Source: a virus
Lineage: Duplodnaviria; Heunggongvirae; Uroviricota; Caudoviricetes
IMG/VR virus record: IMGVR_UViG_2671180846_000026
DNA: 4,217 nt
Direction: 5' to 3' (one strand)
Each line of letters begins with the position of its first letter. Position 1 is the first letter of the stretch. The notes beneath the pieces were generated by a model. That model saw only the letters and a list, made by a program, of their open reading frames with translations, searched no databases and was not told the DNA's origin. This document shows positions 1,400 to 4,217 of this stretch, in pieces. The translations under genes and the position numbers were made by a program.

Positions 1400-2228
1400 G
1401 GTTTACCCCTTTGCTGACTGGTTTAACCTGCGCCCTGACGTGATTTACGTGACGGGCGAATTTCTGCTCCCACTGAATCTGCGTAAACACTTTCCCCTCC
1501 GCTGCCCAGTAGTCCCGGAAGGCGGCAAGTTCAGCAGGTGTAAATTCTGTCTCCGGCAAAGCCATCCCCCACAACGCAGCCCGTCGTCGAAAATCCCGTG
1601 ACGGATACCAGCTATCGCTCATCGGGAATTTTCCGATGGGTTCGCTCAGGCCATACAGGAATACAGGGGGGGCTGCCTGTAACGACAAAACTTCCTGCTC
1701 ACTGGTCGGAGCACTCTCGCGTGCGTTATGTGTGGGGTTTAGATCTTTGGGTTCCTTTGGGTTCCGTGATCCGTTTTTGGGTGTCTTTGATGGAAAATTT
1801 GGGTGTCTTTGGTTATTTTCCATGCAGCTAAGAGTTCTGTTTTTGGGTCTGTTTTGTGCTGAAACATAACCATTTTCGGTACTGTTTTTATTAACAGCAC
1901 CAATTTTACCCACCTTTAAAGACTCCCGTTTTTGGGTGTATTCAGGCTCGGCAACACTTTCTTCTACACCGATAAGTCGGTACACCACAATTTGCTTTGT
2001 TCTGCCTTTTCTCTCACCGGTATCAACAATTAACCCAATCTCCATCAGGTGTCGTAAGCTGTCCTGCACAGTCTTTTTGTTCAGTTCCGTTACTTCTGCC
2101 AGTGCAGATACAGACGGGTATGCACACAAATCGGCACCGCACATATCAGCAAGCCAGGTCAATACTGACTTACTGGATGAACTGCCGGTTTTCACCTTTT
2201 TAGCCCATCGTAGTGCATCGATACTCAT
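1188..2228 (-). CDS. Replication initiator, O-like (N-terminal HTH DNA-binding domain, low-complexity P/K/N-rich linker encoded by the iteron region, acidic C-terminal tail)
   Basis: ATG at 2228..2226 with SD (AGGGG, 5-nt spacer). The track's longer ORF begins at a TTG at 2303 with no support. N-terminus MSIDALRWAKKVK...LAEVTELNKKTVQDSLRHLMEIGLI is a typical phage replication-protein HTH. Sits between the cII-position gene and the P-like gene as in lambda O-P. Contains the iteron array. Stop TGA at 1190..1188. Confidence 0.7.
   Translation of the reverse strand: MSIDALRWAKKVKTGSSSSKSVLTWLADMCGADLCAYPSVSALAEVTELNKKTVQDSLRHLMEIGLIVDTGERKGRTKQIVVYRLIGVEESVAEPEYTQKRESLKVGKIGAVNKNSTENGYVSAQNRPKNRTLSCMENNQRHPNFPSKTPKNGSRNPKEPKDLNPTHNARESAPTSEQEVLSLQAAPPVFLYGLSEPIGKFPMSDSWYPSRDFRRRAALWGMALPETEFTPAELAAFRDYWAAEGKVFTQIQWEQKFARHVNHVRAQVKPVSKGVNHAAAPGGTASRAVQEIRAAREQWERENGFISDGNGLEAVGTHGGGLFEPLDPEERGRTFEALDCTDWRDD
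1745..1939. repeat. Iteron-like direct repeats plus AT-rich tract; putative phage origin of replication embedded in the O-like gene
   Basis: Core TTTGGGT at 1748, 1758, 1776, 1798, 1842 and 1931. Perfect tandem 10-mers CTTTGGGTTC at 1745..1754 and 1755..1764. Perfect 14-mers TTTGGGTGTCTTTG at 1776..1789 and 1798..1811 (22-bp period). AT-rich tract about 1860..1920. Same layout as the lambda ori inside gene O. Confidence 0.55.
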
Positions 2229-2722: not shown

Positions 2723-2886
2723 TTGGGGTCGTACTGAAGTTCCCCGCCGGATGCCTCTTGCAGGCGCATCGCGCGACCTTCAGGAACCAGTTCCCCCCAT
2801 GCAGCAACGCTTGCCAGCCTAACTCCTGCGACATTGGCAAGCTTTGTTTTGCTGCCAAAAAACGCTATAGCATCAATTTTCAACAT
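2723..2886 (-). CDS. Cro-like HTH regulator (DicC/Cro family), 3' end hidden in the N-run
   Basis: ATG at 2886..2884 with SD (AAGGGG, 6-nt spacer). Translation MLKIDAIAFFGSKTKLANVAGVRLASVAAWGELVPEGRAMRLQEASGGELQYDP has an HTH (GSKTKLANVAGVRLASVAAW) and resembles recalled DicC. Divergent from the repressor gene across a 76-bp region. Confidence 0.65.
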
Positions 2887-2894
2887 ATCGAACC

Positions 2895-2912
2895 CCTTAG
2901 ATTTTCCTAAGG
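2895..2912. promoter_or_regulatory. Operator-like site 1 (perfect inverted repeat CCTTAG-ATTTTC-CTAAGG)
   Basis: 6-bp perfect inverted repeat with 6-bp spacer. Overlaps the predicted Cro-like SD and transcript start. Shares CTTAG-N-TTTT-N-CTA with sites 2, 3 and 4. Confidence 0.5.
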
Positions 2913-2941
2913 AAACTAGATCGTAGAGAAACCTAAGTCAA
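2913..2941 (-). promoter_or_regulatory. Putative sigma70 promoter for the Cro-like early operon (pR analogue)
   Basis: Minus-strand -35 TTGACT (plus 2936..2941), 17-nt spacer, -10 TAGTTT (plus 2913..2918). Predicted start near 2906 gives a ~20-nt leader carrying the SD. Confidence 0.4.
2921..2938. promoter_or_regulatory. Operator-like site 2 (18-mer; reverse complement ACTTAGGTTTCTCTACGA)
   Basis: 15/18 identical to site 3 when reverse-complemented. Lies in the spacer/-35 of the pR-like promoter and over the -35 of the pRM-like promoter. Confidence 0.5.
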
Positions 2942-2954
2942 GAAAAATTAGAAT
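2926..2954 (+). promoter_or_regulatory. Putative promoter for the repressor gene (pRM analogue), possibly giving a leaderless or near-leaderless mRNA
   Basis: -10-like TAGAAT at 2949..2954 ends 8 nt before the ATG at 2963. No SD before the ATG. Weak -35 (GAGAAA, 2926..2931) as in activator-dependent lambda pRM. Confidence 0.3.
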
Positions 2955-2962
2955 TACCTAAT

Positions 2963-3370
2963 ATGAAAAACGAAACCTTCGGTGCTCGCCTCTTATACAG
3001 GCGAAAAAAATTAAAACTGTCTCAGGCCGCATTAGGTAAGCTGGTCAAAGTGGCTCACGTAACAATTTCTCAATGGGAAAGAGATGAAACACAGCCAGCG
3101 GGGAAGAGATTATTCGCACTGAGCCAGGCGCTTCAGTGCTCGCCGACTTGGCTTCTTTTTGGAGATGAAGATAAGCAACCAGGCGAACCGATCCCAGATA
3201 ATCAGCCAGTCAATCTGACAGAAGATCAAAAAGAGTTGCTTCAACTGTTCGACGCACTGCCTGAGTCAGAGCAAAAGGCTCTGTTGTCAGAGATGCGTGC
3301 TCGAGTTGAGAATTTCAACAAACTTTTTGAAGAACTACTCAAAGCTCGCAAAAGAAGCGCAAATAAATAA
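2963..3370 (+). CDS. dicA: HTH-type prophage repressor, DicA-like (XRE-family HTH, no LexA-like S24 peptidase domain)
   Basis: 135-aa ORF, stop TAA at 3368..3370. HTH (LSQAALGKLVKVAHVTISQWERDE) and C-terminal segment (CSPTWLLFGDEDKQP...LPESEQ...EMRARVENFNKLFEELLKARKR) closely resemble recalled E. coli Qin-prophage DicA (also 135 aa), roughly 60% identical by eye. A homologue rather than K-12 dicA itself; symbol denotes family. Confidence 0.8.
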   Translation: MKNETFGARLLYRRKKLKLSQAALGKLVKVAHVTISQWERDETQPAGKRLFALSQALQCSPTWLLFGDEDKQPGEPIPDNQPVNLTEDQKELLQLFDALPESEQKALLSEMRARVENFNKLFEELLKARKRSANK

Positions 3371-3404
3371 CCCCCCTTTTTTTCGCAACTCTCTGTAATA
3401 AAAA

Positions 3405-3433
3405 GCACAAACTTTCAAATACTTGTGTTTTTT
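3405..3433 (+). terminator. Weak candidate intrinsic terminator downstream of the repressor gene
   Basis: Stem GCACAA (3405..3410) pairs with TTGTGT (3423..3428), five Watson-Crick pairs plus one G-T, 12-nt loop, followed by a T-run to 3433. AT-rich and weak. Confidence 0.2.
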
Positions 3434-3443
3434 ACATCAAGAA

Positions 3444-3461
3444 GCTTAGGTTTTTCTACGC
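3444..3461. promoter_or_regulatory. Operator-like site 3 (GCTTAGGTTTTTCTACGC)
   Basis: 14/18 identical to site 1 and 15/18 to reverse-complemented site 2. Immediately upstream of the -35 of the downstream promoter. Confidence 0.5.
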
Positions 3462-3468
3462 AAAAAGC

Positions 3469-3498
3469 TTGACCATAACTCTTAGGCTATTCTAAATT
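3469..3498 (+). promoter_or_regulatory. Putative sigma70 promoter for the downstream plus-strand operon (pL / dicBp analogue)
   Basis: -35 TTGACC (3469..3474), 18-nt spacer, -10 TAAATT (3493..3498). Flanked and overlapped by operator-like sites 3 and 4. Sits about 80 nt upstream of the 3578 start. Confidence 0.45.
3480..3497. promoter_or_regulatory. Operator-like site 4 (TCTTAGGCTATTCTAAAT), degenerate copy
   Basis: 12/18 match to site 3 including the CTTAGG half-site. Overlaps the spacer and -10 of the pL-like promoter. Confidence 0.35.
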
Positions 3499-3510
3499 CT
3501 ACTCATCAAG

Positions 3511-3524
3511 ACACCGCACGGTGT
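3511..3524. promoter_or_regulatory. 14-bp perfect palindrome ACACCG-CA-CGGTGT in the predicted 5' leader of the 3578 ORF
   Basis: Perfect inverted repeat seen directly. Just downstream of the predicted transcript start. Unrelated in sequence to the CTTAGG operator motif. Confidence 0.35.
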
Positions 3525-3577
3525 TCTCAGCAAACAGTTCCGCTACCCGGCGTTAAGGGGAAGCAGAGGATTTCTCA

Positions 3578-3934
3578 GTGGGCGAAGTCAAACATCAGAA
3601 TGGAAGGCGTCCAGGGATCAGCAAAGAAACAGCGATGGCGCTTTATATTGATATCAGCGCCATTGCCGGACAGGTAAGAATTATCAGAGCGGTAACTAAG
3701 CGGTATGCGCCTTTACTTCAGAAAGTCTCTGGTGAGTGCACCGAAGATATTGTCAACGATTTCGTCATCAAACTGCGAGGACTCATCTTCAGTTACAAGG
3801 TGACCACAATTTTTGCAGATGGCTCCCGCGAAACTGTCAGAGCCCTGCGGCTTAAAGGATGTGTCAAAGACTTAGCCACCACATTCTGGGCAAGAAAACT
3901 TGATTGTATTCATAACCAATTTCCTCTCGAGTAA
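3578..3934 (+). CDS. Hypothetical protein (118 aa from GTG; 99 aa if ATG at 3635), first gene of the putative repressor-controlled early-left operon
   Basis: Only long ORF in either strand over 3371..4005. GTG at 3578 preceded by AGAGGA with 7-nt spacer. Contains several rare Arg/Gly codons (AGA x4, AGG, GGA), typical of acquired genes. I do not recognise the protein. Confidence 0.5.
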   Translation: MGEVKHQNGRRPGISKETAMALYIDISAIAGQVRIIRAVTKRYAPLLQKVSGECTEDIVNDFVIKLRGLIFSYKVTTIFADGSRETVRALRLKGCVKDLATTFWARKLDCIHNQFPLE

Positions 3935-4005
3935 CAGACCCCTCAGAGGATACCACCTCGCCTGACGTGGTTAAAAGCAGGCAGCGCTAACCACAAGGAG
4001 CCGAC

Positions 4006-4217
4006 ATGCAGAAACGAGAACCCGTCATCATCGCGCCAGACTATACCGATGATGAACTTTATGAGTGGATGCACCAGAAAATTAAGGCAGCGCAGGACCT
4101 GAAATGGGCCAATGAAGCCAGGGCTAAGCAGGCTGAAAATCTGTCCGCTCTGGAGCAGGATATCACCAATCTGGAAAAAGCAGCGGCATTAAGCATTGCC
4201 AGAATGATTACATACCC
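4006..4217 (+). CDS. Hypothetical protein, partial (3' end beyond window); predicted helical/coiled-coil, N-terminus MQKREPVIIAPDYTDDELYEWMHQKIKAAQDLKWANEARAKQAENL
   Basis: ATG at 4006 preceded by strong SD AAGGAG (3995..4000, 5-nt spacer). Open for 70 codons to the window end with typical codon usage. Absent from the ORF track because no stop lies in the window. Confidence 0.6.
   Translation, partial: MQKREPVIIAPDYTDDELYEWMHQKIKAAQDLKWANEARAKQAENLSALEQDITNLEKAAALSIARMITY

Follow-up and report, generated by a model that had tools for sequence, protein, structure and literature searches.

A DicA-family immunity repressor of the Escherichia coli prophage PPompW lacks a self-cleavage domain and is probably translated from a leaderless mRNA

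The stretch of DNA analysed here (the window) comprises 4,217 nucleotides (nt) of the IMG/VR virus record IMGVR_UViG_2671180846_000026 (Caudoviricetes). It carries the gene for a repressor of the DicA family, which is the subject of this study, and a cro/dicC-like gene that diverges from it, and three predicted operators (O1–O3) fill the 76-bp gap between the two start codons (Table 1). Downstream of the repressor gene, the prophage annotation shows ydfC and dicB. Positions 1–2672 of the window showed 100% identity, and positions 2723–4217 showed 99.5% identity, to the chromosome of Escherichia coli O26:H11 strain 11368. The window was also 99.6–99.7% identical to the "PPompW" prophages of O145:H28 in GenBank, in which the gene is already labelled dicA and the encoded repressor is identical to that of the window. 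The annotated neighbourhood of the gene (L001, 40.9 kb) is a lambdoid prophage adjoining ompW. The element is PPompW, a lambda-like prophage of pathogenic E. coli that is defective; in O145:H28, it was excised and circularised in mitomycin-C-treated lysates and is packaging-defective (PMC8112680).

The start codon of the repressor gene at position 2963 is unambiguous, because an in-frame TAG lies at positions 2924–2926 and no ATG, GTG, or TTG codon occurs between the two. The model that defines the DicA family (NCBIfam NF007257, "transcriptional repressor DicA"; PRK09706) covered residues 1–135 of the 135 residues, with an E value of 1.6e-72 and a score of 241.6 bits against a cut-off of 101, and the protein was 63% identical to DicA of E. 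coli K-12 over its full length. All of its Pfam matches were of the helix-turn-helix (HTH) type (HTH_3, residues 12–64, 4.3e-14), and residues 2–69 matched the DNA-binding domain of P22 C2 (1e-21; template modelling (TM) score in Foldseek, 0.97). In the AlphaFold2 model (mean predicted local distance difference test score, 87), five HTH helices (residues 6–66) are followed by a proline-rich linker and by two further helices (residues 87–98 and 101–134), so that the predicted C-terminus is purely helical.

A Peptidase_S24 domain was not found in the repressor by the Pfam search, even at E ≤ 1. As a positive control, the same search identified Peptidase_S24 at 1e-17 to 1e-26 in relatives of 209–222 amino acids that have the N-domain in common with it, and the absence of the domain from the repressor is therefore real. 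In addition, the inter-domain linker (residues 67–86, GDEDKQPGEPIPDNQPVNLT) contains no A-G cleavage site, the sole A-G pair being residues 46–47, inside the HTH domain. A hidden or frameshifted S24 remnant downstream of the gene was also considered. It was rejected, because positions 3371–3577 are promoter and terminator DNA, the next open reading frame (ORF; 3635–3934) has no Pfam match, and the length of 129–145 amino acids is kept by most of the short homologues. It is thus nearly certain that the repressor has no self-cleavage domain. With neither a cleavage site in the linker nor a Ser/Lys S24 domain, RecA-stimulated autocleavage is not possible. The preliminary description of the window, drawn up from the sequence alone, had portrayed the product as a short HTH protein with a helical C-terminus and no S24/LexA-like domain, and had considered RecA-stimulated autocleavage unlikely. 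The HTH_3 match and the modelled hairpin, together with the domain search and its positive control, bear out the first part, and the joint absence of the S24 domain and of the A-G site in the linker bears out the second.

The motif TAGA-N4-CCTAAG, allowing at most one mismatch, occurred five times in the window, as compared with 0.12 expected, and all of the copies lie at two promoter regions; the rest of the 40.9-kb locus contained only one further, weaker match. Because the operator sequence differs from that of K-12, the element is heteroimmune to the K-12 prophage Qin. The promoters of the repressor gene and of the cro-like gene stand back to back, with 7 bp separating the −35 element of one from the −10 element of the other. 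In K-12, the binding of DicA at Oc turns dicC down and dicA up, and dicA has no consensus promoter (Yun et al., 2012; PMC3441716), and the back-to-back arrangement makes relief of promoter competition a plausible cause of this "activation."

The putative −10 hexamer of the repressor promoter, TAGAAT, is separated from the ATG by exactly 8 nt (2955–2962). The promoter was recovered only by a lenient promoter scan, in which the only other candidate on the + strand of positions 2600–2975 was a poor one with a 15-nt spacer. Upstream of the repressor gene, a motif of the lambda PRE/CII type (TTGC-N6-TTGC) was not seen by eye; no formal search for it was made. A Shine-Dalgarno (SD) sequence is missing: within the 20 nt before the ATG, the best duplex with the anti-SD sequence had a free energy of +0.2 kcal/mol, which ranked third weakest when 44 annotated genes of the 40.9-kb locus were scored, as compared with −7.7 for the divergent cro-like gene, which has TAAGGGG. 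The first ~8 nt of the predicted transcript were unpaired in the minimum-free-energy fold.

The geometry of the promoter and the ATG is conserved. We compared DicA-like loci from one genome per species, locating the start codon in each, and obtained 37 loci that differ from one another upstream of the gene (the 40-mers before the ATG had a median pairwise identity of 38%). A TAnnnT hexamer ended 6–9 nt before the ATG in 35 of these loci, whereas shuffled sequences gave 5.5 ± 2.1 (maximum, 13; 2000 shuffles). In DNA of 72% AT, a lone TAnnnT hexamer is not significant, and it is the conservation that supplies the significance. The SD sequence was absent in nearly all 37 loci, and an ATG start was assigned in 36, by a start picker that favoured ATG. 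The hexamer varies with the type of operator (TAGAAT, TAGCAT, TAAGAT, TATATT, TAGGAT, and TAGTAT, among others), but T1, A2, and T6 are kept. Since T6 is not kept by all of the other operator copies in the window, this retention argues for a constraint on the hexamer as a −10 element, in addition to that on an operator half-site. The spacing between the repressor ATG and the GTCAA core of an AGTCAA motif is also constant in 29 of the 37 loci.

The same promoter-ATG geometry, with a gap of 7 nt, was observed for the S24-bearing relatives, indicating that the leaderless design is independent of the mode of inactivation. In marine gammaproteobacterial S24-bearing C2-like repressor loci (Marinomonas, Celerinatantimonas, Arsukibacterium, and Aliidiomarina; L048–L050, L055, L057–L059, L061, and L063), AGTCAA is followed by TAAGAT or TAGGAT 7 nt before an SD-less ATG. 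Because these marine relatives keep the back-to-back promoter design, leaderless expression appears to be ancestral to the clade that shares the C2/DicA N-domain.

Published work on the homologues provides transcription start sites (TSSs) for comparison. The TSS of K-12 dicA was placed 3 nt before the AUG by Romero et al. (2014), with a check by RNA-ligase-mediated reverse-transcription PCR and an uncertainty of 1 nt that stems from the coordinate convention of the table, and dicA, racR, and ymfK were classed in a group of just five E. coli mRNAs whose leaders are shorter than 10 nt (PMC4681348). A ribosome-profiling study takes dicA as a known leaderless gene (PMC8794815). The leaderless expression of RacR was established by primer extension and mutagenesis of the −10 element, only one of the three racR promoters being leaderless (PMC9638921), and that of PaaR2 by rapid amplification of 5′ cDNA ends, N-terminal sequencing, and mass spectrometry (PMC8630535).

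By analogy with these systems, we consider it highly probable that the repressor transcript starts within 3 nt of the AUG. The start would most likely be A2961, which would give a 2-nt leader (5′-AUAUG), because the TSS of K-12 dicA is the seventh nt after the aligned hexamer TAGCAT; the alternative is A2963. The preliminary description had reported the missing SD and a −10-like TAGAAT ending 8 nt upstream of the ATG, both of which were found as described, and had proposed a leaderless mRNA. This proposal gains from the geometry seen across the family, from the lack of an SD, and from the data on K-12 dicA, RacR, and PaaR2, and it is refined in one respect, in that the start probably lies 2 nt before the AUG and not on its A.

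As for the route of derepression, a homologue of the antirepressor Rem is encoded outside the window, 5.4 kb from the repressor gene and adjoining hokD, by an intact ORF of 85 amino acids (L001 14582–14839, − strand; 72% identity, 1e-39). The gene occupies the position syntenic with K-12 rem, and the 220-nt region upstream of it shares 97% identity with the K-12 counterpart. The promoter of the gene (L001 14922–14951, − strand) reads TTGAAG-18-TAGAAT, and the whole spacer is a palindrome, TTCCGGACGGCGCCGGAA (TTCCGG-N6-CCGGAA). In K-12, Rem encoded by Qin derepresses dicBp 165-fold by relieving the repression by DicA (Ragunathan et al., 2023; PMC10448788); it was with GfoA and FsoA as seeds that searches had brought Rem to light. 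Cleavage does not occur in the small repressors of the Gifsy prophages, which are inactivated by LexA-controlled antirepressors, DicA and RacR being listed as homologues (Lemire et al., 2011; PMC3121763). The expectation that induction would need an antirepressor or another route agrees with the presence of the Rem homologue and with this literature, and we lean slightly towards Rem-type antirepression as the main induced route, the interaction of Rem with the repressor of PPompW being putative.

A second candidate antirepressor, a protein of 172 amino acids with P22_AR_N (1.1e-45) and ORF11CD3 domains, is encoded in the late region (L001 6660–7178, − strand), where it adjoins IS600 and may be truncated. 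The sole strong LexA-like box in the 40.9 kb, TACTGTTTTTATTAACAGCA (window 1880–1899, L001 19082–19101; 15 of 20 consensus matches; at least one such box in 8 of 300 shuffles), falls within a replication gene (O-like/DnaT-like), where iteron-like GTTTTTGGGT repeats surround it, and does not precede any antirepressor gene. A Gifsy-style circuit, in which LexA controls the antirepressor, was considered and is not supported, because no LexA box (CTG-N10-CAG) was found upstream of either the rem-like or the P22_AR_N gene.

The best explanation, which we regard as likely, is that the ORF encodes the immunity repressor of PPompW, a heteroimmune and non-cleavable member of the DicA family that is made from a leaderless maintenance transcript and is subject to Rem-type derepression. 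The domain content, the operator repeats, the missing SD, the conserved promoter-ATG geometry, and the presence of the rem homologue were observed directly in the sequences; the mechanism proposed here takes its transcription start, operator occupancy, and Rem–repressor interaction from the homologues, and its inducing signal is putative. A dimer of the repressor would bind to five 16-bp pseudo-dyads, C(T/G)TAGA-N4-CCTAAG. Occupancy of O1 and O2 would turn off the divergent cro/dicC-like promoter, and that of OL-a and OL-b the leftward dicB-type operon, whereas O3, which lies over the −10 element and the start of the repressor's own transcript, would provide negative autoregulation at high repressor concentration. 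The C-terminal helical hairpin, which stands in place of the S24 autoprotease, would likely serve dimerisation and may offer a surface for binding the antirepressor. The maintenance transcript would issue from a weak promoter (−10 TAGAAT, no −35 consensus), start at A2961–A2963, and be translated in the leaderless mode, like that of lambda cI from PRM. The Rem-type antirepressor encoded 5.4 kb away would be the most likely route of derepression, after which the Cro-like protein would lock the derepressed state.

Several points weigh against this explanation. The −35 element of the repressor promoter is poor, and a strict sigma-70 consensus scan missed the promoter on account of this weakness, calling only the PL-like promoter and one intragenic site; TAGAAT could be present owing to the operator alone. 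In addition, a leader of 2–3 nt would be expected to lower true initiation at a 5′-terminal AUG, as work by Krishnan et al. in 2010 is said to imply. In an in vivo assay in K-12, DicA bound only Oc, and not Om or Oa (PMC3441716), so that the occupancy of O2 and O3 is uncertain. The candidate antirepressor genes lack LexA boxes, as described above. Finally, neither Rem (72% identity) nor the repressor (63% identity) is close to its counterpart in K-12, both having diverged, and the recognition of one by the other is therefore only putative.

Derepression may instead proceed without an antirepressor, if the bistable DicA/Cro-like switch flips at random or under stress, if the repressor is proteolytically unstable, or if there is crosstalk from co-resident phages; or the repressor may simply keep toxic genes (ydaT-like, dicB, and hokD) silent for good, as RacR does in Rac. 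We consider this possible but somewhat doubtful. The spontaneous induction of K-12 dicBp and its induction by urea and heat are independent of Rem and need DicC (PMC10448788), PPompW is defective (PMC8112680), its repressor gene has YdaS/YdaT-like neighbours, the rem-like gene has no LexA box, and the antirepressors of Gifsy and Fels act in trans between prophages (PMC3121763). On the other hand, the rem homologue has been retained as an intact ORF, its promoter region matching that of K-12 at 97% identity, and the derepression of K-12 dicBp by Rem is strong, as given above. Moreover, these routes and antirepression are not mutually exclusive.

The palindrome in the spacer of the rem promoter could be the operator of some regulator. 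A tentative and rather unlikely extension is that the induction of the DicA-type switch is wired to a non-SOS signal, through a regulator that acts at this palindrome and controls DicA-family prophages, and that the mitomycin-associated excision of PPompW is crosstalk from co-resident SOS-inducible phages. If this were true, the regulator of the palindrome would decide the derepression of dicB/dicF and that of PPompW with its type III secretion system effectors.

With regard to translation, an alternative to the leaderless transcript is that leadered transcripts from further upstream, arising at a PRE-like promoter or by read-through antisense to the cro-like and ydaT-like genes, are the main source of the protein, and are translated via the A/U-rich, unstructured region before the ATG. 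Lambda cI, too, is also made from a leadered transcript, that of PRE. The 25 nt before the ATG are indeed A/U-rich, a weak TTTTCA-15-TAGATT at positions 2877–2903 would give a 53-nt leader, and racR has only one leaderless promoter among its three (PMC9638921). However, TTTTCA-15-TAGATT has a spacer of 15 nt and is inside O1, and a leadered transcript would have no SD. In addition, a leadered design does not require the conserved position of the −10 element relative to the ATG, and differential RNA sequencing in K-12 gave a near-AUG TSS as the start of dicA (PMC4681348). We regard the leadered alternative as improbable.

It is very improbable that TAGAAT is only a half-site of O3 and no promoter element, its distance from the ATG being set by the packing of operators in the 76-bp intergenic region: TAGA is common to all five operator copies and the consensus promoter scan did not call the site, but the operator leaves positions 5–6 of the hexamer free to vary (TAGATT, TAGAGA, TAGAAA, and TAGAAT in the other copies), loci with quite different operators keep T-A-n-n-n-T at the same distance, and the TSS mapped in K-12 is 7 nt downstream of the aligned hexamer.

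Table 1. Features of the repressor locus and their positions in the window
Feature	Position	Strand	Description
DicA-family immunity repressor gene	2963–3370	+	135 amino acids, ATG start; residues 1–69, P22 C2-like HTH; residues 70–86, linker; residues 87–134, helical hairpin
−10 element TAGAAT of the putative PRM-like repressor promoter	2949–2954	+	Doubles as the left half of O3; counterpart of TAGCAT in the alignment with K-12 dicA
Weak candidate −35 element GAGAAA	2926–2931	+	17-nt spacer, 3 of 6 matches; inside operator O2; from the lenient scan
Predicted transcription start zone	2960–2963	+	A2961 is the 7th nt after the −10 element, A2963 is the A of the ATG; leader of 0–3 nt; predicted from the geometry and the K-12 TSS
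Predicted operator O1 (CTTAGATTTTCCTAAG)	2896–2911		Perfect dyad; position of K-12 Oc; overlaps the predicted start of the cro-like transcript
Predicted operator O2 (CGTAGAGAAACCTAAG)	2922–2937		Between the −35 and −10 elements of the cro-like promoter
Predicted operator O3 (ATTAGAATTACCTAAT)	2947–2962		Covers the repressor −10 element and start site; abuts the ATG
Predicted operator OL-a (reverse complement CGTAGAAAAACCTAAG)	3445–3460		Just upstream of the −35 element of the leftward early promoter
Predicted operator OL-b (reverse complement TTTAGAATAGCCTAAG)	3481–3496		Overlaps the spacer and −10 element of the PL-like promoter
PR-like promoter of the cro/dicC-like gene	2913–2941	−	−35 TTGACT (2941–2936), 17-nt spacer, −10 TAGTTT (2918–2913)
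cro/dicC-like gene, visible part	2723–2886	−	P22_Cro domain; SD TAAGGGG at 2894–2888; 3′ end under the N-run at 2673–2722
Terminator-like hairpin and T-run	3399–3434	+	12-bp A/T-rich stem, 12-nt loop, −9.2 kcal/mol; separates the repressor stop codon from the PL-like promoter
PL-like (dicBp-like) promoter	3469–3498	+	TTGACC, 18-nt spacer, TAAATT; collinear with the K-12 dicB promoter region

In L001, the repressor gene is flanked on one side by int/xis, an exonuclease gene, dicB, and ydfC, and on the other side by the cro-like and ydaT-like genes, O/P-like replication genes, hokD, a DUF968 gene, rusA, Q, lysis genes, IS600, nleA, and nleH1-2. The mask of 50 N in the window conceals 126 nt (L001 19875–20000), a stretch in which the cro/dicC-like gene has its 3′ end and the ydaT-like gene begins. 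An ORF of 228 amino acids at positions 2200–2886 was rejected as an artefact, in which the mask fuses these two genes.

Downstream of the repressor gene, the terminator-like hairpin would stop repressor transcripts from extending into the dicB-type operon. The PL-like operon has a leader (3500–3577) that is nearly identical to that of the K-12 dicB operon, though the operators and the first ORFs differ, and the hairpin ACACCG-CA-CGGTGT (3511–3524) within this leader may stabilise the 5′ end or act as a nut-like element. The first ORF of the operon (3635–3934, + strand; 99 amino acids), which replaces ydfA/ydfB of K-12, is annotated as hypothetical, and a Pfam search of its product gave no match. 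A YdfC-like ORF begins at position 4006. The Rfam scan of the window detected no RNA family.

Non-cleavable repressors, control by antirepressors, and leaderless mRNAs have already been published for DicA, RacR, PaaR2, and the Gifsy repressors, to which the present locus contributes one more, heteroimmune case whose predicted operators form a clear set. The −10 element that ends 6–9 nt before an SD-less ATG across ~37 DicA-like loci and the S24-bearing relatives is a useful, if unsurprising, generalisation. Type III effectors are encoded by PPompW (nleA and nleH1-2), and Stx2a phages integrate in it (PMC8112680). How the repressor is made and inactivated bears on prophage excision, dicB-type expression, and crosstalk between prophages in enterohaemorrhagic E. 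coli, an importance that we consider modest.

Among known systems, the HTH domain followed by a helical C-terminal oligomerisation region recalls SinR/SinI and the phi106 repressor/AimX, to which full-length Foldseek matches were obtained (1b0n, 9sf2, and 9iaq); at a root-mean-square deviation of 8–10 Å and ~20% identity, this likeness is an analogy only. With P22 C2, the repressor shares the N-domain, and the layout of its predicted operators, with short half-sites around a 4–6-bp centre, is similar. In contrast to C2, which has 216 amino acids and an S24 domain, and to LexA and lambda cI, it has 135 amino acids and no S24 domain.

In the design of its expression, the repressor resembles lambda cI from PRM, RacR from PracR3, YmfK/CohE, and PaaR2 of CP-933P: the gene diverges from cro, and a weak autoregulated promoter within the operators has its start, predicted in the present case, at or near the AUG. 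Unlike that of cI from PRM, the predicted start here probably lies 2 nt before the AUG (3 nt for K-12 dicA) and not on its A, and activation may be due to relief of competition and not to contact of the type made by cI with sigma.

In its mode of inactivation, the system is like those of Gifsy-1, -2, and -3, with the repressors GfoR, GtgR, and GfhR and the antirepressors GfoA, GftA, and GfhA (Tum of 186 and AntC of N15 are further such antirepressors), in that a non-cleavable repressor of ~135 amino acids is accompanied by a small antirepressor gene outside the immunity region. It differs from Gifsy in that no LexA box lies upstream of the rem-like gene and the promoter spacer holds a different palindrome.

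As compared with Qin of K-12, the operator is CTTAG-N6-CTAAG here and TTAGT/TTAGC...ACTAA/GCTAA there, and the immunity specificity is hence different. The gap between the −10 element and the ATG is 8 nt here and 9 nt in K-12 dicA, and the host element carries nleA and nleH and retains int/xis. Conversely, the repressor has in common with Qin DicA its 135 amino acids, its membership of NF007257, the divergent cro-like gene, and the three intergenic operators (predicted in the window) with more at the downstream promoter, in a layout that matches the Oc/Om/Oa arrangement. Also common to both are the ydfC...dicB operon downstream, the aligned −10 element just before an ATG with no SD, and the rem homologue adjoining hokD.

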